Source: Polyangiales bacterium (GTDB taxonomy: Bacteria; Myxococcota_A; Polyangia; Polyangiales; Polyangiaceae). Taken from it: DNA of 64,000 nt. The notes beneath the pieces were generated by a model. The model was given only the letters and a program-made list of their open reading frames with translations. It made no database searches and was not told the DNA's origin. Shown in pieces: positions 2,066 through 25,791 of this stretch. The stretch's first letter is position 1. Every line of letters begins with the position of its first letter. The position numbers and the translations under genes are program-made. The stretch spans positions 32,001-96,000 of the forward strand of contig JBBRLQ010000012.1 in the NCBI GenBank assembly GCA_038231275.1, given 5' to 3'.

Positions 2066-4519
2066 TCAGCGCGGGCACGCCGTGGGGTAGAGGAGGTATT
2101 TGTCGCGCTTCACACGAAACGCCGCGAGCTCCTTGTCCCACGTCGCCTCGATCTCAGGCAGCGTCTTGCCTTGCGCGATCGCGTCGAGCGCCGCGCGGTT
2201 CGCGAGGAGGCGATTCACGTCGTCGAAGTGCCACTTGCCGGCGTGGAGCGTCCGCAAATCGCTGGCCAGCGCGAGGCCGGCGCGTACCGGCTCGAAGCGC
2301 GCGCGATCGGTGACGGTGATGCGAACGCCCGAGCAGCGCTCGCCCTTGTACGGCGCCGCCTGCGGAGTGAAGGTGGTCGCGGCGAACGAGACACCGGGGA
2401 TCCCGCGACCGGTCAGCGCGGCGGCGAGCACAGGCCCGTCGACGAACGGCGCGCCGACGACCTCGAACGGCGTGTCGGTGCCGCGACCGACGGAGAGGTT
2501 CGTCCCCTCGACGAGCCCCACCGCCGGATAGAGGAGCGCCTCGGTGACGCTGCGGAGGTTGGGTGACGGGTTCACCCACGAGAGGCCCGTCGCTTCGAAA
2601 TAGTCGCCGCGCCGCCATCCCTGCGCCGCCACCACGTCGAGCGTCGCGCCGAGGTGGTCCTCCGCATCGAAGAGGAGCGCGAGCTCGCCGATCGTCATCC
2701 CGTGGCGAACGGGCAGCGGGCCGTGGTGCACGAAGCTCTTGGACGCCGCGTCGACGAGCGGACCGGCGACGTCGAGGCCGTCGATCGGATTGGGCCGGTC
2801 GAGGACCATGAAGGCCACGCGCGCGAGGCTGGCCGCCTTCATCGCGCGGCGCAGCGTCGACGGGTACGTGTAGTAGCGCGTGCCGACGTCCTGCACATCG
2901 AAGACGAGGACGTCGAGCCCCTCGAGCGTCTCTGGCGGCGGCGCGAACGTGGCGCCGTAGAGGCTCACGACCGGGAGGCCCGTGGTCGCGTCGCGCCCGT
3001 CGGGGAGGAGCCCCTCCTTGTCGGCGCCGAGGCCGTGCTCCGGCGTGAAGATGCGCACCAGCGTCATGCCCGGCGCGGTCGCGAGGAGATCGATCGTGCG
3101 CGTCCCGTCTTTCGCGCGCCCCGACGCGTTGGTGAGGAGGCCAACCTTCTTCCCGCGCAGGCGCAAAAAACGCTCGGCGCGCAGGACGTCGATCCCCGTC
3201 AGGACGTCGCGCCCGTCGTGCTCGCACGGCGACGGCGTGCGCGCGAGACCTGCGACCTCTGCGGCGATCGTTCCGATTTTCGCCTCGAGCTCGTGGACGG
3301 CGCCGCGCCCGTACGGGTGAACGCGGTTGCTGAGGAAGAGGACGAACAGGTCCGCGTCCGGATCGATCCACAGCGACGTACCGGTGAACCCGCCGTGGCC
3401 GAACGCGTGCCGGGAGAGGCCCTCACCGCGGTGCTTGGTGAACGCGCTCGACATGTCCCAGCCGAGCGCACGGATTCCGCCGGGCACGTCGTGCGGCGCG
3501 AGGAACGCGGCGAAGGTCGACGGTGAGACGACGCGCGCGCCGGAAATCTGGCCTTTCCCGAGCCACGCCTGCGCGAAACGAGACAGGTCGCGCGCGGTGG
3601 AGAAGAGGCCCGCGTGACCCGCGACGCCGCCGAGCGCGTAGGCGCGAGGATCGTGGACCTCGCCCTGCATGAAGCCGGCGTCGGGGCGCATCTCCGTCGG
3701 CGCCGCGCGGGCGCGCATCGGCTCGGGCGGCGTGAACGACGTCTCGCGCATGCCGATCGGCGCGAAGACGTTCTCGGCCGCGAAGGTCGCCACGTCCTTT
3801 CCGCTCACCCGATGGACGAGCTCGGCCAACACCATGAAGCCGACGTCGGAGTAGACGAGGCGCTCGCCGGCGGGCCATCGCGCCGGCGCGTCGAGGATGC
3901 GTCGCCACGCCTCGTCCGGTCCGCGCGCGAAGTCGCTCATCGGGTTGTCGGCGACGAGCCCTCCCACGTGAAGGAGCAGCTGCCGCACGGTGGTGGCCCC
4001 TTTCCCTCCGTGCGCGAACTCGGGAAGGTACGTCGCGACCGGCTCGTCGACGGCGACTTGCCCGCGATCGACGAGCACCATCACGCTGGCCGCCGTCGCG
4101 ATCGGCTTGGTGAGCGACGCGAGATCGAACACGGTGTCGATCTGCATCGGCAGTCGCGCCGGCGCGAGCGCGCGCTGCCCGAAGGCGCGCTTGTAGAGGA
4201 TCTCGTCCTTTCGCCCCACCACGACGACGCAGCCGGGCATCTTGCCCTCGACGAGCGCCGCCTCCGCCGCGGCCGCGATGCCGGCGAAGCGCGGGTCCTC
4301 GACGGAAGGACCCGCGAAGGGATCGGTAGCGGCGCCGTCCGCAGCAAACGCGGTGGCCGCCTCGACGTCGGCGTCGGAAACGAACGCGCCGGCGGCTCCC
4401 GAGGAGACGGGAGCGACCGGCGCGCGGGCATCGGGCGGCGGAGACTCGGCGCAGAACGTCAGGAGCGCGCCGAGGATGATCGGAGCGACGACGAGAGCAG
4501 CGCGAAGCGCGCGGGCCAC
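2066..4519 (-). CDS. Beta-lactamase-family serine hydrolase fused to DUF1343/NamZ exo-beta-N-acetylmuramidase domain
   Basis: ASLTK (SxxK), YSD and HGG motifs, then NamZ-type GLLTN, PEHG, DVQDVGTRYYTY, DRPNP, RHGMTIGELA, PSPN. Confidence 0.88.
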   Translation of the reverse strand: MARALRAALVVAPIILGALLTFCAESPPPDARAPVAPVSSGAAGAFVSDADVEAATAFAADGAATDPFAGPSVEDPRFAGIAAAAEAALVEGKMPGCVVVVGRKDEILYKRAFGQRALAPARLPMQIDTVFDLASLTKPIATAASVMVLVDRGQVAVDEPVATYLPEFAHGGKGATTVRQLLLHVGGLVADNPMSDFARGPDEAWRRILDAPARWPAGERLVYSDVGFMVLAELVHRVSGKDVATFAAENVFAPIGMRETSFTPPEPMRARAAPTEMRPDAGFMQGEVHDPRAYALGGVAGHAGLFSTARDLSRFAQAWLGKGQISGARVVSPSTFAAFLAPHDVPGGIRALGWDMSSAFTKHRGEGLSRHAFGHGGFTGTSLWIDPDADLFVLFLSNRVHPYGRGAVHELEAKIGTIAAEVAGLARTPSPCEHDGRDVLTGIDVLRAERFLRLRGKKVGLLTNASGRAKDGTRTIDLLATAPGMTLVRIFTPEHGLGADKEGLLPDGRDATTGLPVVSLYGATFAPPPETLEGLDVLVFDVQDVGTRYYTYPSTLRRAMKAASLARVAFMVLDRPNPIDGLDVAGPLVDAASKSFVHHGPLPVRHGMTIGELALLFDAEDHLGATLDVVAAQGWRRGDYFEATGLSWVNPSPNLRSVTEALLYPAVGLVEGTNLSVGRGTDTPFEVVGAPFVDGPVLAAALTGRGIPGVSFAATTFTPQAAPYKGERCSGVRITVTDRARFEPVRAGLALASDLRTLHAGKWHFDDVNRLLANRAALDAIAQGKTLPEIEATWDKELAAFRVKRDKYLLYPTACPR

Positions 4520-5587: not shown

Positions 5588-6445
5588 GTGTCTTCCATCG
5601 ACGCTGATGTGAGAGTTAAGGCAGGTCCGAAAGGAACCGCCGTGGCGGACGGCAGTGGGGCGATCGTGATCGCCGCGCGTGGCGATCGATCCATCGTTGC
5701 GCGCGCGCGCGCCGAGAGTCCGCTCAAGCTCCTCTTCCCTCGCAACCACGGCAGCGCGCAGTGGGTGTTCACGGCGACGTACGGCGGCGGCCTCGTGGAC
5801 GGCGACGCGATCGCGCTCGACGTCGACGTGCTGGACGGCGCGGCGGCGCTCGTGTCGACGCAGTCGTCGACTAAGGTGTACCGCTCGCCGCGCGGCACGT
5901 CGCAAACGCTTCGGGGGCGCGTCGGAGAAGGCGCGCTGCTCGCGGTTCTGCCCGATCCGGTCGCGTGCTTCGCGGGCGCGCGATACGCGCAGCGCGCCGA
6001 GGTGACTCTGGCGGCCGGCGCCTCGCTGCTGTTCGTGGATTCGATGACGTGCGGGAGGGCGGCGCGCGGCGAGCGCTGGGACTTCGCGCGCTATGCGTCG
6101 CGCACGACGATCACGCGCGGCGGGCGCGCGCTCGCGATCGATGCCACCGTGCTCTCGCCCGACGACGGCGACCTACGCGCGCGCATGGGCCGCTTCGACG
6201 CGCTCGCGACGGCGTTCGCCTTCGGACCGCGCGCACGAGCGTCGCGCGACGCGCTGCTCGCGGTCGGCGCGGTCGACGCGCCCGTGCGAGGGGACGTCGT
6301 CGCGGCCGCCAGCCATCTCGGCGACGACGGCGCCGTCGTTCGCCTCGCCGCGACGAGCACGGCGGCCCTGCTGGCGGCGCTTCGACGCGCGCTCGCCCCC
6401 CTCGCCGAGGTCCTCGGCGACGATCCGTTCGCGCGAAAGTGGTGA
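5588..6445 (+). CDS. ureD: Urease accessory protein UreD
   Basis: PLKLLFPR, YGGGLVDGD, STQSSTKVY, LPDPV, GRAARGERWDF. Confidence 0.9.
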   Translation: MSSIDADVRVKAGPKGTAVADGSGAIVIAARGDRSIVARARAESPLKLLFPRNHGSAQWVFTATYGGGLVDGDAIALDVDVLDGAAALVSTQSSTKVYRSPRGTSQTLRGRVGEGALLAVLPDPVACFAGARYAQRAEVTLAAGASLLFVDSMTCGRAARGERWDFARYASRTTITRGGRALAIDATVLSPDDGDLRARMGRFDALATAFAFGPRARASRDALLAVGAVDAPVRGDVVAAASHLGDDGAVVRLAATSTAALLAALRRALAPLAEVLGDDPFARKW

Positions 6446-6450
6446 TCACC

Positions 6451-7425
6451 TCATTGAAGCGCGCGCGGGCGACGACGCCACGTGACGCGCGTTGCAGGGC
6501 CGGACGTGCGCGAGATTTCGTCGATCTCGCGCGCAAACGCGTCGAGCTGCGAGAGGCTCCCGAGCTTCGGAACGATTAGGACCTCGCCATCGGACAGCGT
6601 CACGGGCGGCACCAGACGGCCTGGCGGCGCGGGCGCTCCGAGCGGGCGAAGCGCATCGACCTCGGGGCTGCGGCCCGGCGCGAGCTTCGCGGTCACGGCG
6701 CGGGCCGCGGCGCGCACATCGTCCGCGCGCGATCGCGACGAACCGGCGAGCGACGCGGCGTCGAGTGCCAGCGCGATTCGTGTCTCCGGCGTGCGCGCAC
6801 GCGCCCTCAGCGCCTCCAGCGCAACGTCGCACCCCTCCCCTTCGATCTTCACGACCGCCGCGGCCGCCAGCGGCCACGCCAAGAAACGCGCACGGTTCTC
6901 TCCCTCGTCGCGATCGCGCGCGACGCCGTCGCGAAAGAGCGCGAAGCACGGCGCGCCGGCGGGGGCCTCCGTGCACGACGCGCCGATCCCGACCGTCAGC
7001 GCGCCGTCGGACGAGGACGCGGTCCTTCGCGCGATGTAGTGCGCCGCCGTCAGCGTCGGCGCGAGGCGCTGCCTGACCGCGCGAACGGCCTCGTCGGGCG
7101 GCCCGTCCTCGAGGTCCTCTCCGAGCGGATTTTTGCGGATCTCCACGCGCGCAGCGAGGAGCCTCAGGCCTATCTCGAGCTCGGCGAGCTCGGCGTCGGA
7201 GAGCGCCGCGAGGGCGACGCCCATGACCTGCGCTTCGCCCTCCTCTCGTATCGCCGTTGGGGCGACCGCCCCGGCCGGCGTGATCCAAACGACCGGCGAG
7301 GCGATCCCGACGTTCGTGTCGTTCAGGTCGTTCGCGACGATCGGCGCGTGTCGAAGCGACGGGCGCACGAGCGCGAAGAGGCCCATCGCCGCAGCGACGA
7401 GCGCGCCCCACTTTCCCGGCGCCAC
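6451..7425 (-). CDS. Hypothetical protein with N-terminal membrane anchor
   Basis: Natural-looking translation from VAPGKWGALVAAAMGLFAL; start uncertain. Confidence 0.5.
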   Translation of the reverse strand: MAPGKWGALVAAAMGLFALVRPSLRHAPIVANDLNDTNVGIASPVVWITPAGAVAPTAIREEGEAQVMGVALAALSDAELAELEIGLRLLAARVEIRKNPLGEDLEDGPPDEAVRAVRQRLAPTLTAAHYIARRTASSSDGALTVGIGASCTEAPAGAPCFALFRDGVARDRDEGENRARFLAWPLAAAAVVKIEGEGCDVALEALRARARTPETRIALALDAASLAGSSRSRADDVRAAARAVTAKLAPGRSPEVDALRPLGAPAPPGRLVPPVTLSDGEVLIVPKLGSLSQLDAFAREIDEISRTSGPATRVTWRRRPRALQ

Positions 7426-8310: not shown

Positions 8311-8862
8311 TCATCCTTTGATGAACCGCGCGACGACCGGGCGCGGCATGGATCCGTGGACCGCGCCGGGCGCCCATTTCATCTCCAGCGGACCGCCGGC
8401 GAACGTGACGAGATAACTCGGCGTGGAGAGGATGTTGGGCCCGAACGCCAACACGAAGGTGTCCGGGTAGCAGCACGACAAGTCTTTCCCCCACGAAAAC
8501 GTTCCCTGGCGTGAGGCGTCGCGCGAGAAGACGTTGGCGCCATCGGGGACGAGCGCGAAGAACTGACCGCTCGGCAAGAGCTCGATCGCCGCGGGCGCCG
8601 TCGGGTCGGACGCCTCGCAGAGGAACCAGCGGCCATCGAGAAGAGCGCGCGCGGCCAGCCCGGTCTCGGGCTCCGGAGCGCTCGGCGTCGCCGCGCAGCG
8701 ACGCGCGACGGCGCCGAGATCGACGGGCGCGGCGGGGTTCACGTTCGAAACGCGCGCGTCGTCGTAGCCGACGTCGAGCGACTGCCCGCCGCACGCGCCG
8801 GCGCACGCGACGCATGCGGCCGCGACGATGCCTCCCACGGTCTTTCTCGTCGCAGTGCGCAT
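8311..8862 (-). CDS. Putative lipoprotein, likely ECF target
   Basis: Signal peptide ending AGAC-GG; lies directly downstream of the anti-sigma gene and a candidate ECF promoter. Confidence 0.65.
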   Translation of the reverse strand: MRTATRKTVGGIVAAACVACAGACGGQSLDVGYDDARVSNVNPAAPVDLGAVARRCAATPSAPEPETGLAARALLDGRWFLCEASDPTAPAAIELLPSGQFFALVPDGANVFSRDASRQGTFSWGKDLSCCYPDTFVLAFGPNILSTPSYLVTFAGGPLEMKWAPGAVHGSMPRPVVARFIKG

Positions 8863-8868
8863 CACGGG

Positions 8869-8896
8869 AGTGCTTGGGGACAGGGTCATCGCGTCA
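8869..8896 (-). promoter_or_regulatory. Candidate ECF sigma promoter TGACG-N18-GCACT
   Basis: Minus strand TGACGcgatgaccctgtccccaaGCACT; similar to the motifs at 30209 and 31720. Confidence 0.45.
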
Positions 8897-8907
8897 TTTC
8901 CAAATCG

Positions 8908-9639
8908 TCATTGCGGCATCGACGCGAGCGTCGCGTTGACGGAGCCTAGGGAGACCGAGCGCGGGAATCGCTCGCGAAACCGCTCCCCGCGCGCGCGCGC
9001 TTCGGTGTAGCGGGCTGCCGCGGCGAGCGCTTTCACGGCGAGGGCCTCGCGCTCCTCGGCCAGCGCCCCTTGCGGGTAGGTGCGCTCGTGACGCTCGACC
9101 GCCAGGAGGGCCGCGTCGGGCTCACCGCGCGCCAGCGCCGCGCGCGCGCCGTCGAGGAGCATGCGTTCGGCCGCGAGCCCACGCGCGTCGATGACGGGGA
9201 CCGACGGCGCCGGCGCGCGGGCCGTCGCGGCGTTCGCGGGCGACGGGGCCACCGATGGCGACGGTGGCACGTCGAGGATTTCGAGGACCGTGCTCGACGG
9301 CCCTGGCACGACGCGCTCGACGTAGGTGACGCGCGCCGGTGGAGTTGGCGTCGACGCGCGCATCCCGAGCGCGCCGACCGTCACGCCGACGAGCAGCGCG
9401 CCAACCAGGCCGGCGACCGGATGTGCACCCATCGTGCGCGCAAGGGACGACCGAGCGCCGCCGTCATCCACACCGCCACCACCGCCACCGTCACCGCCAC
9501 CGCCTGAGGGCGGCAGCAGCGCGATCCTCGCCTCCACCGCGCCCAGCACGCGCGCGCGGAGCTCGTCGGGCGGCGCGGGCGCGAAGCCTTTCTCGGCCGC
9601 CACGAGCGCGGCGAGCTCTTCGTCGATCGGATCGGTCAC
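8908..9639 (-). CDS. Putative transmembrane anti-sigma factor with C-terminal TPR-like domain
   Basis: GTG overlaps the sigma stop; one TM, Pro-rich linker, LAAERMLLDGARAALARGE..ERHERTYPQGALAEERE. Confidence 0.75.
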   Translation of the reverse strand: MTDPIDEELAALVAAEKGFAPAPPDELRARVLGAVEARIALLPPSGGGGDGGGGGGVDDGGARSSLARTMGAHPVAGLVGALLVGVTVGALGMRASTPTPPARVTYVERVVPGPSSTVLEILDVPPSPSVAPSPANAATARAPAPSVPVIDARGLAAERMLLDGARAALARGEPDAALLAVERHERTYPQGALAEEREALAVKALAAAARYTEARARGERFRERFPRSVSLGSVNATLASMPQ

Positions 9640-10187
9640 GGGTGCCGCACCTTTCTCGCGCCGCCGAGACGTCGGGCGGCGGCCGCGACGTCGGCCCGCG
9701 CGCTCCGCAAGCGCGAGCTCACGGTGCCGTCCGGAATACCGAGCGCCTGGGCCACCTCGGCGGTCGTCAGCTCCTCGAGATCGTGGAGCACGAACACCGA
9801 CCGGCGATCGGCGTCCAGCGTATCGAGCGCCTCCGCCAGGAGCTCGCGCTGGCGGGCGCGGTCGAGCGCGTTCTCGGGAGCGCTCGAGGGGGCCGCGGCA
9901 TCCGGCTGCTCGCCGAGGATTTCGGCGCGGTGGCGCGCGAGACGCCGGTGCTCCGACGCCACGCGCGCCGCAAACGCGCATAGCCAGGGGCGCGCAGGAC
10001 GCGCGGAGTCGTAGGTGCCAATCGCCTTGTACACGCGGAAAAATACCTCGTTCGCGAGGTCCTCGCGGTCCGCCTCGGCCACACCGAGACGTCGCAGGAC
10101 GTTCCACACGAAGCCGAAGTTCTCGGAAAAGAGGGCGCGAAAGACGACCGCCACCTCCTCTACTTGGCGCGTGGTGGGCTGGCTCAT
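9636..10187 (-). CDS. ECF RNA polymerase sigma factor
   Basis: FVWNVLRRLG, EDLANEVF, RPWL, EVAQALGIPDGTVSSRLRSAR. Confidence 0.93.
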   Translation of the reverse strand: MSQPTTRQVEEVAVVFRALFSENFGFVWNVLRRLGVAEADREDLANEVFFRVYKAIGTYDSARPARPWLCAFAARVASEHRRLARHRAEILGEQPDAAAPSSAPENALDRARQRELLAEALDTLDADRRSVFVLHDLEELTTAEVAQALGIPDGTVSSRLRSARADVAAAARRLGGARKVRHP

Positions 10188-11200
10188 CGAAAAATCTGCA
10201 CGCCAAGGCCGACGCCGACGTCGAACGACACCGAGGGCGCCGTGAAGACGAGCGCGCCGTTCATGTAAGCACGGTGAGGCGTGAAGGAGCCGAGGCCGGA
10301 GAGTGCGCCGAACGCGTAGACGGGGCCCGCGAGGGCAACCGCCGCGCCGAACCGCGCGCCGGCACCCGTGAACAAGGCCGCCGCGGATCGAGGCGCGCTC
10401 ACCTCGCTCGTCGTGGCGCGAAATGAACCGAGCGCGCCGAGGACGCACGCGAACGGACGCCACCTCTCGCCGACGAGAACGCCGCACGCGCTCGCGACGA
10501 TGAGCGCGCGCGAGGCCTCCACGCGCCCGCCCCCTGGAATCGCGTCGGACGCGGGCAGCTCGTAGTGTCCATCGACGCCGAGGGACCAGAACCTCCCGAC
10601 CACGCGCGCGCCGAGGCTGCCCCCGAGCGTCGGCGACGGCGCGCCCGCCGCGACACCGTGCCCTCCGAGCTCCAACGCAAGGCCGAGCGTGCGCGGAGCT
10701 TCCGGAGCGGCTGGCCCCGGGTCGGGCGACGCGGTCGCGGCGGGGGGCGTGACCGGCGCGGCAGGCGAGGGCTCCGCGAGCGGCGGCGTCGACGGGGCTG
10801 GGTCCGGCGCAGGCGCGGACGGCGCAGGCGTATCGAGATCGTCGATCGCGATGCTGATCGCGAGCGCGAGGCTCTTCACCACCTCGCCGCAGTCGCTCGT
10901 CGTGGACGGAAGCGCGCGCTCGCCGAGCGACACGCCGGCGTCGTCGAGGATCTTGAGCTCGGCCGAATAGCCGCTCGGTCCTTTCTGGATCTGCGCCACG
11001 ATCGTCCGGTTCGCGGTCGGAAAAAACGGATCGTAGCCCAGTCGATCGGCGACGGCGCGCCGCAGCGTGGCCTCGTCGGGGCACCCTTGCGCGCCGGGCC
11101 CGCGGACGTACGTGAGGCGCGACGTCGGCGACGCGCGCGCGGATCCCGTGACGGCGACGGTCGCGACGGCCGCCACGAGCAGGGCGAGACCGCCTCTCAT
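10184..11200 (-). CDS. Secreted protein with N-terminal Cys domain, Pro linker and C-terminal beta-barrel-like domain
   Basis: Signal peptide (SARA), GCPD..C motif, alternating beta-strand pattern at the C-terminus; stop overlaps the sigma ATG. Confidence 0.7.
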   Translation of the reverse strand: MRGGLALLVAAVATVAVTGSARASPTSRLTYVRGPGAQGCPDEATLRRAVADRLGYDPFFPTANRTIVAQIQKGPSGYSAELKILDDAGVSLGERALPSTTSDCGEVVKSLALAISIAIDDLDTPAPSAPAPDPAPSTPPLAEPSPAAPVTPPAATASPDPGPAAPEAPRTLGLALELGGHGVAAGAPSPTLGGSLGARVVGRFWSLGVDGHYELPASDAIPGGGRVEASRALIVASACGVLVGERWRPFACVLGALGSFRATTSEVSAPRSAAALFTGAGARFGAAVALAGPVYAFGALSGLGSFTPHRAYMNGALVFTAPSVSFDVGVGLGVQIFR

Positions 11201-16395: not shown

Positions 16396-17127
16396 ATGGG
16401 CCACGACCACGATCACGACCACGACCATCCCCACGACCACGTGCACGAGCGGCTCGCGCATCCGGGGCTGTTTCGTGACCGGGCTCCGGCGCGACCGAGG
16501 GAGTTCGGGAAGCGCGCGTTCACCGTGGGGATCGGAGGGCCGGTAGGGAGCGGGAAGACGGCGCTCGTCCTCGCGCTCTGCAAGAGACTGCGCGACGGCG
16601 TGCGTCTCGGCGTCGTCACGAACGACATCTTCACGCGCGAGGACGCGGAGTTCTTGCAGCGCAACGACGCACTCGCGCACGAGCGCATTCGCGCCGTCGA
16701 GACCGGTGGCTGCCCCCACGCCGCGATCCGCGAGGACATCAGCCACAACCTCGACGCGCTCGAGCAGCTCCACATCGACGCCGCGCCCGAGCTCCTCCTT
16801 CTGGAGAGCGGCGGCGACAACCTGGCGGCGCAGTTCAGCCGCGAGCTCGTCGACTACACGATCTACGTCATCGACGTGGCAGGCGGCGACAAGGTGCCGC
16901 GCAAGGGCGGGCCGGGGATCACGCAGAGCGATCTCCTCGTCATCAACAAGATCGATCTCGCCCCGCACGTCGGCGCGAGCCTCGACGTGATGAAACGCGA
17001 CTCCGAGCGGATGCGCCAGGGGGGGCCGTTCGTCTTTGCGCAGTGCCGAGAGGGGACGGGGATCGACGAGATCGCGCGCCGGGTGCTCGCGGCGCGAACC
17101 GACGCACTCGGCCAGTCGCGCACGTGA
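16396..17127 (+). CDS. ureG: Urease accessory GTPase UreG with His-rich N-terminus
   Basis: [42 protein letters not shown]. Confidence 0.97.
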
Positions 17128-19346: not shown

Positions 19347-20197
19347 CAACGGCACACGACGCTGGGCCACCTTCCTTCGGGCACGCCCGTCGCCATTGCG
19401 TGCGCGCGAGCGAGCACGCCGGCGCACGTGTCGACGCGCGCGGCGATCGTGTAGGGGACGTAGGTGCCGTCCTCCGGCGCGGCGGCGTCGCGCGAAGCTT
19501 TTCCGTGATGGCCTTCGGTCCCTTGCGACACGACGCCCACGATGTCGCCAGTCTCGCGCGACCACACCGGACCGCCCGAGTCGCCGGGGCGCGCGAGGCC
19601 GCTCACCACGATCGAGCCGGCCATCACGCCGGTGGTGACCCCGCTGCGGTACCCACGAAGGAGCGCCCGCTGCGACCAGCCGGCCGCCGGCACCGTCTTC
19701 GATCCGTCGCGCGTCCCGAAACCGGACGCCATCAGATCCTCGTCCTCCCACGGTTCGGCCACGACGCGCGCCGATCGCGTCGGCACCTCGGGCGGGAGGT
19801 TCGTCTCGAGGACGAGCGCCGCGATGTCGCCGCGCGCCGTCTCGTTCCAGCACGGGCATGTCACGACGCCGACGACGCCGACGCGCCCCCACGGCAAATA
19901 GTCTCCGCCGAGCTCGACGCGAATGTCGCCCGGCGCGTGGCGCACCCACTTGTCGCCGTGATCGACGACGCAGTGCTGCGCGGTCAAGACGACTCCCGGC
20001 TCGACGAGCGCGCCCGAGCACGAGCCGCCGTGGGACAGGACGTGGACGATCCAGTCGTCGGGCGTGGCGTCGATGTGCGACAGATCGAGGAGGTGGGTGT
20101 CCGCCTCGAGCCGCAGGCTCGTGGAGAGCGAGAGGCGCGGATAATGGGCGCAGCTTGCGGCGAGGAGCGAGAGCGCGAGGACGACGCGCTTCAGCAT
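19346..20197 (-). CDS. Trypsin-like (S1) serine protease lipoprotein
   Basis: LAASC lipobox; LTAQHC, DIA, GDSGGP catalytic triad. Confidence 0.9.
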   Translation of the reverse strand: MLKRVVLALSLLAASCAHYPRLSLSTSLRLEADTHLLDLSHIDATPDDWIVHVLSHGGSCSGALVEPGVVLTAQHCVVDHGDKWVRHAPGDIRVELGGDYLPWGRVGVVGVVTCPCWNETARGDIAALVLETNLPPEVPTRSARVVAEPWEDEDLMASGFGTRDGSKTVPAAGWSQRALLRGYRSGVTTGVMAGSIVVSGLARPGDSGGPVWSRETGDIVGVVSQGTEGHHGKASRDAAAPEDGTYVPYTIAARVDTCAGVLARAHAMATGVPEGRWPSVVCR

Positions 20198-20354
20198 GCG
20201 CGACGGATTTGCAAGGGTCGCGCCCCCACGCAGCGACGCCAAGCGCGCGAGCTCGCAGGCGACGCCGAGCCCATGCGGGATCGGGCGCCTCTGCTGCGTT
20301 TCGAACGCGAGAGCTTGCGCCCCGGCGCCGGGTGTCGCACATCTTAAGGAGAGA

Positions 20355-20717
20355 ATGTCCGACGAACCGGAGCAGGACAGCGACGTCGTCTACCTCCACA
20401 GCCCGACCGACGACGGCGACGGCGTTCGCGTCGTCCGCGCGCGTCAGGGCAAGGTGGAGATGGGCGAGGTGCGTCCCATCGCCGAGGGCAAGCCGCTCTC
20501 CGGCGAGATCGTCAGTCTTCGTCCGCGCGAGGGCTCGCCTCGGGTATGCGACGTGAAGGTCGAGTACGCGAAGACGGACGACGCAAAGCCCGCGAGCGCC
20601 TCGGGGAGCGCCGCGAAGGGCCCCGCGCAAGTCGCGACGACGACGTACCGCGACAACTGGGAGTCGATCTTCGGAAACGCCGGCCGCCGCTCGAAGAAGG
20701 CCGCCGTCCTGAATTGA
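20355..20717 (+). CDS. Hypothetical protein
   Basis: AAGGAG RBS; typical codon usage; C-terminal QVAT..YRDNWESIFG. Confidence 0.75.
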   Translation: MSDEPEQDSDVVYLHSPTDDGDGVRVVRARQGKVEMGEVRPIAEGKPLSGEIVSLRPREGSPRVCDVKVEYAKTDDAKPASASGSAAKGPAQVATTTYRDNWESIFGNAGRRSKKAAVLN

Positions 20718-20870
20718 TCGCGCGCGTCTGGACAAACTCGTCCGTAGTGCGCACGTTGCGGAGCACTCGAGGCTCTCGGGGCGAAGTCATCTGCGCACCA
20801 AACCGCGCTGCCGCCCGCACCCTCACAACGTTTTTTCGGCCGAAACGCCGAGGCACCTTTCAGACAATTC

Positions 20871-21013
20871 GCATCGGTCCACGGCGACGTGCGGCTTCTC
20901 GTTCGTTCATCCGTTCGAGAAGGCGCACGACCGCCGGAATGAGCCCACGCCTTCGGCGTGACGCGCAGCCGGGGAGCCACGTTTGCTCCACGCGCCGATG
21001 CACCGTTTTCCCG
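20871..21013 (+). ncRNA. Candidate structured RNA (multibranch) in the leader of the Ro60-like operon
   Basis: GCATCGGT(20871-78)/GCCGATGC(20994-21001) helix enclosing hairpins at 20889-20928, 20946-20960 (cUUCGg) and 20973-20989. Confidence 0.4.
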
Positions 21014-21041
21014 CGCCCATCCGGCAAGGCCCCACAAGCAA

Positions 21042-21141
21042 GCTCGGAGATTGTTGGTTCGACTCCAACCGGCTGCACCGCGTTCTCGGACGCTCTCGCA
21101 CGCAGCTGTAGCCTAACGGTAAGGCACCGGCCTCTTAAGCC
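21042..21141 (+). ncRNA. Circularly permuted tRNA-Lys(CUU)-like element; candidate YrlA-type Y RNA
   Basis: T arm GTTGG-TTCGACT-CCAAC (21053-69) and 3' acceptor CGGCTGC (21070-76) come first. A 25-nt linker follows, then 5' acceptor GCAGCTG (21102-08), TA, D arm GCCT-AACGGTA-AGGC and anticodon arm CCGGC-CTCTTAA-GCC. Confidence 0.75.
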
Positions 21142-21321
21142 AAAAGCCATGGCTTTCCCACTCGGGCGTGGGCAATTCTTTTCAAAAGATCGAGATCACC
21201 GCCGCGTGGACGCCAAACGTTCGCGCGCCCGAGCCGCAGGTTAAATCGGGCACACGAACGGCGGCCGCGCGTCCCGCGGCGGGGTTCTCTCAGTTATTCT
21301 TCCCTTCCTTCGGAGGTCCCC

Positions 21322-23094
21322 ATGAACACGAACCAGACGCGCGCGCCCCTTCCGGAGTCGCAGCTCGGGCCTGCCGAGCGGCTGCTCGATCTCGTGCTCA
21401 ACTCGTCGGCGCACCTCTGGCACAACCGGCCGGGGCTCGACGTCCGCGGTGTGTGGCACGCGGCCCGCGGCGCGAAGGTGCGCGGCACCGCCGCGAAGCC
21501 GGGCCTCTTCGTTCCGGCGGCGCGCGGCCTCTACGCGCGCCTCCTCGAGATCTACACGCTCAACGCCGATCTCATGGCGCACTTCGCGTCGTACGCGCTC
21601 CTCGAGACCGAGTGGCGCGATCTGAAGGTCGCGTGCGCCGCGCTCATGCTCGTTCAGGGCAAGAGCGGCCAGCCGATCAAGGAGGACCTTGCCAAGGGCG
21701 CCGCCGTCGCGTTCTACGACGACGACTACCGTGCGATCGGCGAGGCGATGGTCCTCTTCTACGCCAAGAAGAGCACCAAGATGCTCACGCCCAAGGGCGT
21801 GCTCCGCGTCGGGGAGCTCCTCGAGGTTCCGGAGATCGCTGCGCTGAACCGCGCCGCGGGATTCGGCGACGCGACGGGCGGCAAGGCGCCGCTCGGACGC
21901 TGGAAGCGCGCGGCCACCAAGTGGCTCGCCGCGCGCGAGAAGAACCGCGTGATGCTCGAGGGCCTGGTCCGCGCCGGCTACAAGGAGACCATCAAGAAGA
22001 TCGCCCGAAAGGCCGGCTACAAGCCGGAGACGCAGGCCTTCTTCGAGATCCTCGGTTGGAAGCAGAAGCAGGCGGACGGCGGTCACCGCACCGTCGGCCT
22101 CGGCGCCGACCTCAAGCTGGAAAAGCGCGAGCGCTTCGACGGCGTGAGCGAGGCCGAGATCTGCGAGCGCATCGAGCAAGATCGCCTGTCGTACAAGGAC
22201 GTCGTCGGGCGCCTGCCCAAGGACGTCGGGCTCACCCCGGCGATCATGGTCGCGCTCCTGCCGTCGCTCAGCGATCGCGATCTGCGCATGCTCACCCCCA
22301 CCCTCGAGGAGCTCGGGCTCATGACCGAGCCGGAGATCCGCGCGAAGTGGGAGAAGGCCATCCTCTCGTCGACCGACCAGCGCTCGCTCACCACGGCCAA
22401 GAACGTGAAGAGCAAGGCGCTCAAGGAGAAGCTCGAGGAGGCCGCCGACAACGCCGCGAAGAACGCGGTCAAGGCGGCGACCAAGGACAGCGACGTCCGC
22501 GTCATCTTCCTCGTCGACAAGTCGGGGAGCATGACGAACGCCATCGAGCAGTCGAAGGAGGCGCTCTCGCGAATCCTCGCCGGTTTCCCTGGAGAAAAGC
22601 TGCATGTTGCAACCTTCGACACGACCGGGACGGTCCTCCGCCCCAAGGCGGCGTCGCGGGCGGCGGTGCAGCACATGCTCCAGGGCATCACGGCCGGCGG
22701 CGGCACGATGCACGGCGCGGCGGTGCGCGCGCTCCACGAGGCGGGCGTGTCTTTCCCCAAAGAGAGCAAGCTCGTCGTCATCGTGGTCGGAGACGAGGCG
22801 GGCGAGACCGGCGAGCAACTGGCCCACGCCTTCCGCGCCTTCGGCTTCGACGTCGCGGCGCTCGCGCTCATGCTCCCCTCGCAGGCGGGTCGCGGCTACA
22901 CGGTCCGAAACTGCGCGACTGCGCTGGGCATCCCGTTCAGCGAGGTCACGCTCGATCAGTTCGCCGATCCGTATCAGGTGACCCGCGTCCTCACAGCCCT
23001 CCTCGAGGCGCCCAAGATGATCGCGGGCCCCGTGAAGCAGGCGGGCTGGGTGGAGAAGGTCATGAAGACCAAGCTCCTCGAATTGCCCAACTAG
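21322..23094 (+). CDS. vWA-domain protein with basic helical N-terminus; divergent Ro60/TROVE (Rsr)-like
   Basis: GGAGG RBS; MIDAS DKSGS, GGGT, VVGDE; Ro60-like GRWKRAATKWL...IARKAGYKP and ALLPSLS...LEELGL; 590 aa. Confidence 0.7.
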   Translation: MNTNQTRAPLPESQLGPAERLLDLVLNSSAHLWHNRPGLDVRGVWHAARGAKVRGTAAKPGLFVPAARGLYARLLEIYTLNADLMAHFASYALLETEWRDLKVACAALMLVQGKSGQPIKEDLAKGAAVAFYDDDYRAIGEAMVLFYAKKSTKMLTPKGVLRVGELLEVPEIAALNRAAGFGDATGGKAPLGRWKRAATKWLAAREKNRVMLEGLVRAGYKETIKKIARKAGYKPETQAFFEILGWKQKQADGGHRTVGLGADLKLEKRERFDGVSEAEICERIEQDRLSYKDVVGRLPKDVGLTPAIMVALLPSLSDRDLRMLTPTLEELGLMTEPEIRAKWEKAILSSTDQRSLTTAKNVKSKALKEKLEEAADNAAKNAVKAATKDSDVRVIFLVDKSGSMTNAIEQSKEALSRILAGFPGEKLHVATFDTTGTVLRPKAASRAAVQHMLQGITAGGGTMHGAAVRALHEAGVSFPKESKLVVIVVGDEAGETGEQLAHAFRAFGFDVAALALMLPSQAGRGYTVRNCATALGIPFSEVTLDQFADPYQVTRVLTALLEAPKMIAGPVKQAGWVEKVMKTKLLELPN

Positions 23095-23117
23095 AATAGC
23101 GAGGAGAGAGGAACGCT

Positions 23118-24086
23118 TTGGCCGACTACCGAAAGTTCCTCTCCAAGGTCGAGACGAGCGTGCTCCCGTATTTCGGCGGCACGCGCGTCGACACCTCCTC
23201 ACGTCGCTTGCGTCTCCCGAGCGCGCTGGACGCGCCCGGCTGGTACACGTTCGAGATCAAGGGGCGTGAGGCCTTTCCGAAGGATCCGGCGGACGCGCCG
23301 GATCTCTCGGACCTACCGCTCGCGCGCGGTCACGTCGTCGGGCGCTGGCTCGTCGGCGACAACGCGGGCGCGGTGGAGATGGAGCTCTTTTCAGAAGAAG
23401 AGCCTCCGGTGCTCGCGCCATGCCGCGCGCGCGTTTGGTACGGGGGAGAGGTCCTCTTCGAGGGCCTCGACTTCGAGGGCGAAGCCGAGCTATCCGCGCG
23501 CGAAGCGCTGGAGGATGGCCGCTCCCTCGAGGGCATCAAGGGCGTCGGCGCGCCGTTACGGGCCGCGTTCGCCTACGCGGTGCTCGCACGCACGTCGCGC
23601 GAGCTCACCATCCCATTCTCTCCAAAAGAAGTACGAAAGGATCTCCTCACCATCGCTGGAACTGGGCCCGACGGCGCCGCGAGTTCGCTGCGCCGCCTCG
23701 AGCACGAGCGACGCATGTGGCGCGCGCTTCACCCCGAAGAGGCCCTCCTGCGCGGAGAGGCTCCTCCTCCCGTTCGCCACCACGGCCCCCAGCCGACGCT
23801 CGCGAACGCCGAAGAACGCGCCGACGCCGCCCTCGAAGCGGCAGGCGCGCGCCTGCTCGCCGTCCGTCGCCTCGGCGATCGCCAGCTCGAGGTTCGGTAT
23901 CGCTTCATGGACGAGCGCTTCGTCACCGTGTGCGACGCGCTCACGCTGCAGATCCACGACGCCGGCGTCTGCCTCGGTCACGGCGAAGAGCGCGGCGATC
24001 GCCTGCTCACACTCGAGAGCCTTCCGTCCGTCATCAAGGAGGCGATCGACACCGACGTCCTCGTCATCACTCGCGGCTTCGCTTGA
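23118..24086 (+). CDS. Hypothetical protein with HhH-like motif and C-terminal E2 (UBC)-like Cys motif
   Basis: Strong RBS and TTG start; LEGIKGVG; QIHDAGVCL...LTLESLPSVI resembles the E2 G.ICL...LTI..VL pattern. The CDS is confident, the function is inferred. Confidence 0.55.
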   Translation: MADYRKFLSKVETSVLPYFGGTRVDTSSRRLRLPSALDAPGWYTFEIKGREAFPKDPADAPDLSDLPLARGHVVGRWLVGDNAGAVEMELFSEEEPPVLAPCRARVWYGGEVLFEGLDFEGEAELSAREALEDGRSLEGIKGVGAPLRAAFAYAVLARTSRELTIPFSPKEVRKDLLTIAGTGPDGAASSLRRLEHERRMWRALHPEEALLRGEAPPPVRHHGPQPTLANAEERADAALEAAGARLLAVRRLGDRQLEVRYRFMDERFVTVCDALTLQIHDAGVCLGHGEERGDRLLTLESLPSVIKEAIDTDVLVITRGFA

Positions 24087-24166
24087 AAGGAAGGACTCGC
24101 GCGTGAACAAATCGGCGGCCAGCTCGTCGAAGCAGAAACGTTCTCACCGAAGAAAGGCGGCATCCC

Positions 24167-24409
24167 ATGGCGATTCTGAACATCACGTACAACGGTCTGT
24201 CGGCGGACTACCCGCTCGACATGAACTACGACCTGTCGGACGCCGACGTCCGGCGTATCGCGCTCGAGGTCGTGCGTTCGGGCGGCGTCGGCGGCCTCCA
24301 GATCGCGAACCTCGACGAGCGCGCCTTCGCGGCGCACGTGATCGACCGGTTCCAGGGCCAGGACGGTGCCCCGCGCATCTACCTGCGTCCCAAGGTCCCG
24401 TTCGGTTGA
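24167..24409 (+). CDS. Ubiquitin-like (beta-grasp) protein
   Basis: 80 aa with a strand-strand-helix-strand-strand pattern, ends RIYLRPKVPFG; directly upstream of a ThiF/E1 gene. Confidence 0.7.
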   Translation: MAILNITYNGLSADYPLDMNYDLSDADVRRIALEVVRSGGVGGLQIANLDERAFAAHVIDRFQGQDGAPRIYLRPKVPFG

Positions 24410-24412
24410 ATT

Positions 24413-24480
24413 TCGTTTGGAACGAGTCTTTTCAGTGGAATCTACTGAAAGGATTCGTTCGAACGATTCCATTGAAAGGA
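24413..24480 (+). promoter_or_regulatory. Long AT-rich intergenic hairpin with an alternative RBS-sequestering fold
   Basis: 24420-38 pairs with 24442-60 (19 bp including G-U). Alternatively 24429-42 pairs with 24465-78, covering the GAAAGGA RBS of the E1 gene. Confidence 0.6.
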
Positions 24481-24482
24481 GC

Positions 24483-25070
24483 ATGCGGGTGCGGATCGTG
24501 TTCTGCGGCGTGGGCGCGCTCGGCTCGACGGCGGCGGTCCTGTGCCGAAACCTGCCTTCGACGCTGGCGTTCGTCGACTTCGATCGTGTCGAGGCGAAGA
24601 ACCTCGCGGCGCAGGCGTACGTCAAGCCGTCCATCGGGAAGAACAAGGCCGATGCGCTGAAGCTCCAGCTGCTGAATTTCTACGGCATCAAGGCGGAGGC
24701 GTTCGGCGTCCGGCTGGGCGCCGAGAACGTCGCGACGCTGCTCGGCGCCGCGGATCTGATCGTCGACGCGTTCGACAACCAGGCGAGCCGGCTCGTCCTG
24801 TCCACCTATGCGCGTGCGGCGAGAAGGGCGCTCGTGCACGGCGCGCTCTCGGGCGACGGGACGTTCGGCTTGGTCCGTTGGGACGAGCGCTTCGTGCCCG
24901 ACGCCGAGGACGAGGCGGGCCAGGCCACGTGCGAGGGCGGCGAGCACCTGCCGCTCATCGGTCTGCTTGGCGCGGCGCTCGCGCGCGCGATCCAGGATTT
25001 CGTGAAGAGCGGCGCGCGGCGCGACTCGATGGTGAGCCTCGCGGCGGTGACGCCGACCGCGTCCACGTGA
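24483..25070 (+). CDS. ThiF/E1-family adenylyltransferase
   Basis: CGVGALGS, DFDRVEAKNL..Q, GKNKA, VDAFDN..SR, ATCE (putative catalytic Cys); no CxxC zinc motifs. Confidence 0.9.
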   Translation: MRVRIVFCGVGALGSTAAVLCRNLPSTLAFVDFDRVEAKNLAAQAYVKPSIGKNKADALKLQLLNFYGIKAEAFGVRLGAENVATLLGAADLIVDAFDNQASRLVLSTYARAARRALVHGALSGDGTFGLVRWDERFVPDAEDEAGQATCEGGEHLPLIGLLGAALARAIQDFVKSGARRDSMVSLAAVTPTAST

Positions 25071-25110
25071 GGCACGCCTCCACGTGAGGCACCCTCTACG
25101 TGAGGCGCGC
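25062..25110. repeat. Three imperfect 16-17-bp tandem repeats at a convergent junction
   Basis: tccacgtgaggcacgcc / tccacgtgaggcaccc / tctacgtgaggcgcgc. Confidence 0.8.
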
Positions 25111-25791
25111 GATCAAGCGCTCGGCGAGCTTGGGTCCGCGCCCCTCGTCTTCGTGCTTGAAGAACACCCACGCCTCGCCCCACGGCTGCGCGCGGATCGA
25201 ATCGGCCCACGCGGCGAGCTCGGCGTCGGTGTACTCGACCTCGCGCAGGCGCAAGTAGCCGAACGGCGCGGTGGGGACGAGCGGCGTCTTGCCCTCTTCG
25301 GTCTCGACCGCGCAGAGCGCGACGTTCTTCGCGCGAAGCGCGGCGTACACCTCGTCGTCGAACCACGACGCGTGACGGAACTCGATCGCCGCGCGCACCG
25401 ACGGCGGGAGGAGCTCGAGCAAATGCGCGAGGCGCCCGAGGTCCTTCTTGAAGTTCGGCGGGAGCTGGAAGAGGAGCGGCCCCTGCTTCGGCCCCAGCTC
25501 GCTCGCGACGCGGAGGAAATGCCCGACCGGGTCCGCGACCTCTTTCAGCCTGGAAAAATGGGTGATTCGTTGCGGTGCCTTCAAGACGAACGCGAAGTCG
25601 TCGGGCGTCTGCGCGGCCCAGCCGGAGACGACCTTGGCGAGCGGCATCCGGTAGAACGTATTATTGATCTCGACGGTGCCGAAGCGCGACGCGTAAAAGC
25701 CGAGCATCGCGTCGGCCTTGAGCTTCTCTGGGTAGAAGCTCCCCTTCCACTCTTTGTAGGCGTAGCCGCTCGTCCCGACGCGGACCTTCAT
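25096..25791 (-). CDS. DUF72 domain protein
   Basis: GTSGYAYKEWKGSFYP, TVEINNTFY, LFQLPP, EFRHASW, YLRLR. Confidence 0.93.
   Translation of the reverse strand: MKVRVGTSGYAYKEWKGSFYPEKLKADAMLGFYASRFGTVEINNTFYRMPLAKVVSGWAAQTPDDFAFVLKAPQRITHFSRLKEVADPVGHFLRVASELGPKQGPLLFQLPPNFKKDLGRLAHLLELLPPSVRAAIEFRHASWFDDEVYAALRAKNVALCAVETEEGKTPLVPTAPFGYLRLREVEYTDAELAAWADSIRAQPWGEAWVFFKHEDEGRGPKLAERLIARLT

Follow-up and report, generated by a model that had tools for sequence, protein, structure and literature searches.

A tRNA-like small RNA and a vWA protein gene head a recurrent cassette with candidate ubiquitin-like activation genes in Myxococcota and tailed phages

In a 64,000-nt stretch of the genome of a Polyangiales bacterium (GCA_038231275.1, contig JBBRLQ010000012.1, positions 32,001-96,000 of the forward strand; the whole stretch is referred to as the window, and position 1 is its first letter) we found a cassette in which a small RNA resembling bacterial Y RNAs precedes four genes. 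They encode a protein with a C-terminal vWA domain, a 322-aa protein which we call p322, a candidate ubiquitin-like protein (Ubl) and a ThiF-type E1 enzyme. Homologous cassettes, many of them with a JAB peptidase gene in addition, are present in other Myxococcota and in two contigs of tailed phages. We lean, by a small measure, towards the view that the cassette encodes a Y-RNA/Ro60-like ribonucleoprotein (RNP) coupled to a minimal Ubl activation module, which acts on tRNA-type RNA or is triggered by it. The recurrence of the package suggests that RNA surveillance and Ubl tagging are connected in a way that has not been described so far. Its parts in the window are the following.

21011-21171, plus strand: Y-RNA-like small RNA, a circularly permuted tRNA-like module inside a terminal stem made of P1 and P2.
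21322-23094, plus strand: gene of the vWA protein, 590 aa (Pfam VWA_2, E 1.8e-10).
23118-24086, plus strand: gene of p322, 322 aa, of no known family.
24167-24409, plus strand: gene of the Ubl candidate, 80 aa, ending at an invariant Gly (RIYLRPKVPFG-stop).
24483-25070, plus strand: gene of the ThiF-type E1, 195 aa; ATG 24483 is the probable start, the open reading frame (ORF) being open from GTG 24366.

Searches of species genomes with p322 and with the vWA protein recovered 13 and 230 loci, respectively, nearly all of them in Myxococcota. All locus counts out of 80 given below refer to the best 80 of the 230 vWA loci, which are designated by L numbers.

The structure of the RNA is strongly supported by covariation. 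RNAalifold predicts 28 base pairs for 39 homologous units, which form P1, P2, the T arm, a 7-bp acceptor stem and the D arm, and 20 of the 28 show compensatory changes. The pair statistics were computed on a MAFFT alignment that was not fitted to any structure, with slid partners and 500 shuffles as controls. The proportion of paired cells was 94.9% (37-47% in the slid controls), double-sided changes were seen in 207 cells (35-66 in the slid controls), and none of the 500 shuffles matched the observed values. The terminal stem, consisting of P1 (6 bp) and P2 (7 bp), is paired in 97-98%, with compensatory changes in seven of its 13 pairs. Conserved sequence motifs of the family are CYACAMGC and CACUCGGGCG, and most units contain an extra hairpin similar to an anticodon arm.

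A covariance model, R1, was built from the MAFFT alignment and RNAalifold structure of the 39 units and used to scan the window and the 80 loci (800,946 nt, E <= 0.01). It gave 86 matches, every one of them on the strand of the vWA gene. The window element 21011-21171 scored 105.4-105.5 bits (E 2e-19 and E 1.5e-21 in two scans), while the runner-up among the 145 matches listed for positions 19500-25500 with filters off reached 11.2 bits. In 41 of the 80 loci an R1 match lies at most 1.5 kb upstream of the vWA gene, and the highest number per locus is seven tandem matches (L094). T-loop motifs recur just 5' of the vWA gene, often in tandem. The co-occurrence of a tRNA-like RNA with the homologues, which the original prediction for this DNA required, is borne out in these 41 loci. 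That prediction had also described a structured region of roughly 600 nt with a permuted tRNA-like element. The element is real and conserved (105 bits), and structure is established for only about 161 of the 604 nt.

The 604-nt gap (20718-21321) extends from the stop codon of a 173-aa ORF to the ATG of the 590-aa gene. Taken as a whole it folds with z = -2.79, and none of 20 shuffles folds as well. We read its elements as follows.

20729-20757, plus strand: promoter-like site, TGGACA at 20729-20734, a 17-nt spacer and CACGTT at 20752-20757, read by eye.
21013-21018, plus strand: GCGCCC of the outer pairing, with GGGCG within 21159-21168 as partner, enclosing the tRNA-like module.
21053-21069, plus strand: T arm with the loop TTCGACT, by direct reading of the sequence.
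21070-21076, plus strand: 3' strand of the acceptor stem, followed by ACC and a 25-nt loop.
21102-21108, plus strand: 5' strand of the acceptor stem, followed by TA.
21111-21125, plus strand: D arm, followed by the anticodon-arm-like hairpin.
21157-21183, plus strand: 3' strand of the terminal stem, CACTCGGGCG, and a T-run (21176-21183), a terminator-like site or processing boundary.
21184-21321, plus strand: untranslated leader 5' of the vWA gene; it contains GGAGG (21312-21316) and no R1 match.

The sequence CACTCGGGCG is a motif of the whole family, its CACTCGG being invariant in the alignment of 39 units, and an automatic scan listed a terminator-like site at 21157-21172 plus CAATTCTTTT. 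The transcript may start at the promoter-like site. An automatic sigma-70 scan listed no site at 20729-20757, and therefore we treat it as a lead only; by eye, a similar TGGACA-N17-CATCTT is also seen upstream of homologous operons in loci of the Labilithrix type. ARAGORN reported no tRNA in the element 21011-21171, and Rfam gave two matches in the window, both at chance level (E 0.37 and 0.86). A decayed metallophosphatase gene was suspected in 20718-21010, but is not supported by tblastn (best E 1.4).

Not all units of the family are permuted. The same scaffold holds a tRNA-like module in normal order in L071, L086, L050 and L094 (3553-3684), which is recognised by ARAGORN and by the Rfam tRNA model. 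No Rfam family except tRNA reached threshold in the 12 loci analysed. Two of the Rfam tRNA matches, L094 3761-3955 and L018 4195-4353, were rejected as artefacts that join halves of adjacent units. A scaffold-only copy (33.9 bits) is located outside the window on the same contig, about 174 kb beyond the cassette, at 227585-227678 (L097 1501-1594). It reads GGCCCTACACGCA ... CGGCTTCGCCACTCGGGCGG, and two small hairpins replace the tRNA-like module; a long extra pairing flanks it, tRNA-like T-arm fragments are nearby, and no cassette adjoins it. Short repeats of the GACCCCGAC/GACGCCGAC type were noticed between the RNA and the vWA gene in L002 (approximately 3000-3170; contig of L015), and about 350 nt of degenerate GCGTCTGCG / CGCACACGCA repeats lie 5' of the vWA gene in L056 (approximately 4080-4450).

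The genes behind the RNA are syntenic elsewhere, as had been predicted, in the order vWA-p322-JAB-Ubl-E1. According to our tblastn analysis of the 4.5-kb flanks of the 80 loci, p322 is found near the vWA gene in 70, JAB in 59, Ubl in 31 and E1 in 27 of them, and in 64 of the 70 loci with p322 its start is at most 150 nt from the vWA stop codon. Where at least 4 kb of sequence is available downstream of the vWA gene (n = 58), all five genes are present in 20 loci and vWA-p322-JAB alone in 25. A Ubl gene was found nearby in all five tested genomes whose flank had none, and in two of them that were examined more closely the distance from JAB to the Ubl-E1 pair, which follows on the same strand after unrelated inserted genes, is 6.7 and 7.4 kb. 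The genes between the two halves were considered as extra components and rejected: Pfam identifies an unrelated glycosyl hydrolase, histidine kinases, an esterase and endonuclease V. Comparison of the loci indicates that the ancestral order is small RNA(s)-vWA-p322-JAB-Ubl-E1, and that the copy in the window has lost JAB. The four genes in the window are co-oriented as originally described, and a good ribosome-binding site was confirmed for the vWA gene (GGAGG), the sole gene checked. Likewise, the stated absence of neighbouring genes for JAB, RtcB, thiamine or Moco holds for the cassette in the window; as regards JAB it does not hold for the cassette in general, whose ancestral form includes it. 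The JAB proteins of five bacterial relatives match Pfam Prok-JAB with E 9.5e-6 to 2e-4 and those of two phage copies with E 2e-4 and 4e-3; the 25-bit cut-off of the model is reached by one of these seven copies. At least two of 201 sampled Myxococcota genomes, including that of the window, contain p322, a number that may be an undercount, since the scoring was limited to 10 candidates per genome.

Other genes were observed next to or near the cassettes. A calcineurin-like metallophosphatase gene (Pfam Metallophos, 5e-14) is located 5' of the vWA gene in 14 of the 80 loci; in the three that were read (L092:3501-4205, L064:3543-4247 and L074:3476-4180) it is flanked by two RNA units, one distal and one proximal. 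Its product may serve the system by healing RNA ends. In L064, which represents a Hyalangium-type variant without p322 and JAB, an endonuclease V gene (6326-7060, Pfam 5e-68) follows just past the vWA gene on the opposite (minus) strand. Two genes in the window seem to be outside of the cassette, namely a DUF72 gene downstream of E1 (25096-25791, minus strand, Pfam 6e-63), and, about 4 kb upstream, a His-rich P-loop ORF (16396-17127, plus strand, GPVGSGKT) that by eye looks like a nickel-chaperone GTPase.

The vWA protein consists of an N-domain (residues 1 to approximately 385) and the C-terminal vWA domain, which contains a complete metal ion-dependent adhesion site (MIDAS: D399, S401, S403, T462 and D491) that 27 homologues and the phage copy share without exception. 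The protein is probably Ro60-like, as judged from its layout and from the profile comparisons described below. Canonical TROVE genes are present in 14 of the 201 sampled Myxococcota genomes and absent from the source genome: PF05731 matched nothing in the whole source genome at E <= 10, while control genomes do match.

The second gene product, p322, belongs to a family with 937 representatives at the 50% cluster level (E <= 1e-3), and is matched by no Pfam, NCBIfam or PADLOC model. Its predicted structure (pLDDT 91.5, pTM 0.86) suggests tandem OB-like beta-barrels (residues approximately 11-117), followed by a helical part (122-241) and, at the C-terminal end, a small alpha/beta domain (231-311), in which a helix and four strands are followed by a loop with a Cys and a further helix. 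The motif containing this Cys, D281-x-G283-x-C285, does not vary among 55 sequences, and the phage copy has it too. In a PDB profile search p322 reached a best E of 0.66, and an Atlas search with residues 222-322 gave no usable match. The protein had been proposed to be E2-like; this proposal is not supported in that form: the modelled barrels are OB-like and no E2 match was found, with the C-terminal domain barely probed. We regard p322 as a candidate Ubl acceptor or adaptor.

The 80-aa protein, to judge by its C-terminal pattern, behaves like a Ubl. Its last seven residues, RPKVPFG, are invariant in an alignment of 30 sequences, and relatives have variable tails of 0-13 aa past the Gly, most of these relatives also carrying JAB. 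In the window and in L028, both without JAB match, the protein stops exactly at the Gly. The phage proteins end with RPKTPFG followed by 60 aa (in virus Rctr197k) or with RPKTEYGY. Pfam at E <= 10 found no consistent family for 30 members, and the candidate assignment, which agrees with the earlier one, comes from this end pattern. The E1 is a ThiF-type adenylating enzyme, as had also been proposed (Pfam ThiF E 9.6e-20, 71.2 bits with a cut-off of 28.1), and its homologues begin at the position equal to ATG 24483. The residues G9, G11, G14, D32, D34, R35, K39, N40, Q44, K55, D98, N99, R103 and C150 are invariant in 28 sequences and all kept in two phage copies; they include the GxGxxG motif and every nucleotide-binding residue, and C150 is presumably the thioester or persulfide cysteine. 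Among curated models, those of ThiF and MoeB match the E1 best (6e-22 to 1e-13), in no case reaching the cut-off. It also matches the PADLOC E1-E2 models (E 2e-13) and the NCBIfam 6A-MBL cap2_3 model (6.7e-14, below cut-off). No PADLOC model matches the vWA protein, p322, the Ubl or the JAB of a relative.

The cassette is also present in phages. Homologues of the vWA protein were found in one of 50,697 phage records, virus Rctr197k (KX853510.1, 197 kb, L118), and in one IMG/VR contig (81.9 kb, L119), with 36-37% identity over nearly the full length. Both are contigs of tailed phages and encode JAB, a Ubl domain and E1, and L119 in addition p322. The vWA gene is located directly 3' of a tRNA array, which comprises 33 genes in Rctr197k and nine in L119. 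The order in L119 is nine tRNA genes, vWA, p322, JAB, Ubl domain, LAGLIDADG endonuclease, E1 and a full-length R1 match; in Rctr197k JAB-like, Ubl-domain and E1 genes are found past the vWA gene among small ORFs, followed by an R1 match and eleven more tRNA genes. In L119 the full-length R1 match after E1 scores 78.6 bits, and two others nearby reach 68 and 62.4 bits; the full-length match in L118 has 56.6 bits. The LAGLIDADG homing-endonuclease gene of L119 (10827-11774) contains helix-turn-helix domains and is inserted between Ubl and E1, and in Rctr197k a DHHA1-domain phosphoesterase gene (Rctr197k_228, L118:12626-13519, Pfam 4e-7) is located between vWA and JAB. The Polyangiaceae locus L072 has a tRNA layout that mirrors the phage arrangement, with two tRNA genes upstream (2623-2928) and about 12 in an array that follows E1 directly (8593-10347).

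How similar is the cassette to known systems? Ro60 (Rsr) occurs with YrlA-type Y RNAs in Deinococcus, Salmonella, Mycobacterium smegmatis and some phages, and its genomic context includes RtcB and PNPase; here the partner genes are p322, JAB, Ubl and E1. As summarized in the passages of Chen et al. 2014 (PMC4201824) dealing with YrlA, this RNA consists of a Ro60-binding stem and a tRNA-like domain in the order V, T, acceptor stem-loop and D; several Y RNAs can be located upstream of rsr and cut from one precursor, and the M. smegmatis YrlA has a 7-bp acceptor stem and is cleaved by RNase P. The cassette RNA shares with it the long stem formed by both RNA ends, the succession of T arm, loop-closed acceptor stem and D arm, in line with the predicted Y-RNA-like layout of the leader, the 7-bp acceptor stem as in M. 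smegmatis, and the location of one to several copies just 5' of the protein gene. The N-domain of about 380 aa followed by a MIDAS-containing vWA domain and the occurrence in phages are also common to both; a survey of jumbo phages (PMC7824862) mentions no more than the presence, in some phages, of a TROVE protein and a tRNA-like partner. The cassette differs from Ro60/YrlA in that Pfam TROVE is silent on its vWA protein, that its RNA has the motifs CYACAMGC and CACUCGGGCG instead, that most units contain the extra anticodon-arm-like hairpin, and that some contain a tRNA-like module in normal order.

BilABCD (Bil) and CBASS Cap2/Cap3 are bacterial Ubl operons. The cassette resembles these and the 6A-6E operons (Iyer et al. 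2006) in that a Gly-terminal protein, a ThiF-type E1 and JAB are encoded together, and in that its E1 matches PADLOC E1-E2 models. It is unlike them in the lack of a recognisable E2, the size of the E1 (only 195 aa), the structured RNA and vWA protein at the head of the operon, the presence of p322 and the phage copies beside tRNA arrays. A term search of Iyer et al. 2006 (PMC1779556) found neither vWA nor Myxococcus, and the vWA-MoxR-FtsH system with a Ubl in Kaur et al. 2020 (PMC7159879) is a different one. With the TtuB/TtuC/TtuA and Urm1/Uba4 systems the cassette shares the short E1, the small Gly-terminal carrier and the link to tRNA, while a thiolase or sulfur donor gene is missing and the Ubl ends in a single Gly. 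The Mpa/PAN-type double OB domain of the Pup-proteasome ATPase can also be listed among the closest known systems.

Several results bear on the Ro60-like nature of the vWA protein, and some of them, together with further findings on the RNA, p322 and JAB, weigh against the proposed Y-RNA/Ro60-like RNP with Ubl activation. Pfam TROVE (PF05731) does not match the vWA protein at E <= 0.01, and a PDB profile search found vWA domains only and no Ro60. When canonical myxobacterial Rsr was first compared by hhalign, the match fell short of significance (E 0.15). In favour of the likeness, after addition of two phage homologues the full-length comparison gave P 3e-4 over 237 columns and the N-domains alone P 0.0073 over 175 columns (reversed control P 0.49), these later values being single comparisons of shallow alignments (Neff approximately 2). 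In the ESM Atlas the closest clusters are TROVE and DUF2828, a lead only, as the score of 0.84 is below the trust line of the tool. Of the predicted Ro60-like protein, the domain layout and the MIDAS stand, and the assignment is probable only. Concerning the RNA, R1 scored 15.1-22.9 bits on 12 canonical rsr loci of Myxococcota, compared to 100-120 bits for the cassette RNA family; since the canonical loci score just 15-23 bits, the cassette RNA is by sequence not of the known YrlA family. The YrlA motif GNCGAAN0-1G, located on the 5' strand of the stem, is seen by eye as GCCGAAG in many units (for example L064:3382, L067:3321, L081:2838), others having GCCGACG; the window unit reads CCGGCAAGG (GGCAAGG) at this site and lacks the motif. 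The folding energy of the 156-nt element is unremarkable (z = -0.35), and 39 of the 80 loci are without R1 match within 1.5 kb of the vWA gene; these are mostly of the Labilithrix type, with a scaffold that looks degenerate by eye. Concerning the Ubl branch, Pfam at E <= 10 over 55 p322 members found neither UBC / Prok-E2 nor any consistent family, and Foldseek found no match to the p322 model at E <= 0.001, the lists being filled by the OB domain so that residues 231-311 were barely probed. In the window the p322 and Ubl genes are separated by 80 nt without JAB, and L015, the closest relative of the window copy, retains a 77-aa JAB remnant; because JAB was lost, the window copy may be partly decayed.

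If the cassette does encode a Y-RNA/Ro60-like RNP with Ubl activation, it could work as follows. The leader would be transcribed from approximately position 20760, and the 161-nt RNA would be released at the T-run or processed near it. Its conserved terminal stem (P1, P2, CYACAMGC and CACUCGGGCG) would be bound by the vWA protein, as Ro60 binds the stems of Y RNAs, while the tRNA-like module with its loop-closed 7-bp acceptor, T arm and D arm would present a tRNA shape to tRNA-handling enzymes or serve as a decoy or sensor. The E1 would adenylate the C-terminal Gly of the Ubl, which in the window is already terminal and elsewhere would be exposed by JAB. Then the Ubl would pass from C150 of the E1, perhaps via C285 of p322, to a target recruited by the RNP, with the contact possibly made through the MIDAS site or through p322 and its OB barrels.

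Other explanations of the same loci have to be considered. TtuB/TtuC and Urm1/Uba4 serve tRNA thiolation, and in Thermus TtuB also forms conjugates, from which a JAMM peptidase removes it. By analogy with these and with ThiS/MoaD, the Ubl could be a thiocarboxylate carrier in a sulfur relay that thiolates tRNA or the tRNA-like RNA, with the vWA protein and p322 holding the substrate. The short, single-domain E1 with its best curated matches to ThiF and MoeB models, although below their cut-offs, its invariant Cys150 and the association with tRNA-like RNAs and tRNA arrays would fit such a relay. However, no PP-loop thiolase, cysteine desulfurase or rhodanese was found among the Pfam-scanned neighbours, the Ubl has one Gly behind a Phe at its end and not Gly-Gly, and precursor tails together with JAB fit conjugation at least equally well. 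We consider thiolation unlikely. A more unusual proposal is that the Ubl is joined to RNA instead of protein. The closed acceptor would be opened by RNase P, as reported for the M. smegmatis YrlA, and completed by CCA addition, and the Ubl-adenylate, the chemical twin of an aminoacyl-adenylate, would be transferred to the 3'-terminal ribose while the RNA is held by a complex of the vWA protein and p322. A covalent conjugate of Ubl and RNA would result. We give this proposal very little credence. Should it be true, the cassette would be a natural means of charging tRNA-like RNA with protein.

A role in anti-phage defence, suggested by the original prediction, would imply that the RNP senses infection, for example through damaged or phage tRNA, and that the Ubl tags phage or host proteins in a Bil- or CBASS-like manner. 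The patchy distribution of p322 among the 201 Myxococcota genomes (yet with 230 loci across the species collection), the variable gene content with frequent unrelated insertions and the matches of the E1 to PADLOC E1-E2 and NCBIfam cap2_3 are in line with this. On the other hand, the vWA protein, p322, Ubl and the JAB of a relative have no PADLOC match, the conserved set is without a nuclease, pore or other effector gene, and no integrase or mobile-element gene was found among the scanned cassette neighbours, the rest of the window not being annotated. Moreover, the cassette is found on two phage contigs, next to the tRNA arrays of these phages, which weakens the defence framing and suits RNA maintenance or counter-defence better. 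The system is not clearly one of anti-phage defence, and we judge this role improbable, to about the same extent as thiolation. Still less probable in our opinion is that the RNA, having originated from a tRNA gene, is only a cis-acting leader, an attenuator or stabiliser, and not a trans partner of the vWA protein. What speaks for this is that the RNA belongs to the 5' leader and, in the 41 loci with a nearby R1 match, immediately precedes the operon on its strand, and that a T-run comes after the stem. A simple attenuator, however, would have no need of a complete tRNA-like module whose T and D loops are conserved. In addition, up to seven tandem copies are present in one locus, some copies in the phage contig are located downstream of E1 or within tRNA arrays, the scaffold-only copy in the window's genome is 174 kb away with no cassette beside it, and in the three loci read the metallophosphatase gene (upstream of vWA in 14 of 80) separates two RNA copies.

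The identification of this cassette is of interest for several reasons. We found no description of it in the literature searched, as judged by title and abstract, which leaves room for an earlier computational mention, and no report that connects Ro60-Y RNA particles with bacterial Ubl systems, although both are active fields. Further, the RNA represents a large, well-covarying new family of tRNA mimics, in which permuted and normal-order modules in one scaffold bear on the origin of Y RNAs from tRNAs. The phage copies beside tRNA arrays point to a function in phages, possibly the protection or repair of tRNA during infection. Since cultured carriers exist, among them Archangium gephyra, A. 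violaceum, Hyalangium versicolor and strains of Myxococcus and Pyxidicoccus, bench tests are feasible. Last but not least, the genetic link has been kept across myxobacteria and phages at approximately 36% protein identity, and thus offers a testable candidate for an RNA-scaffolded or RNA-directed Ubl pathway.

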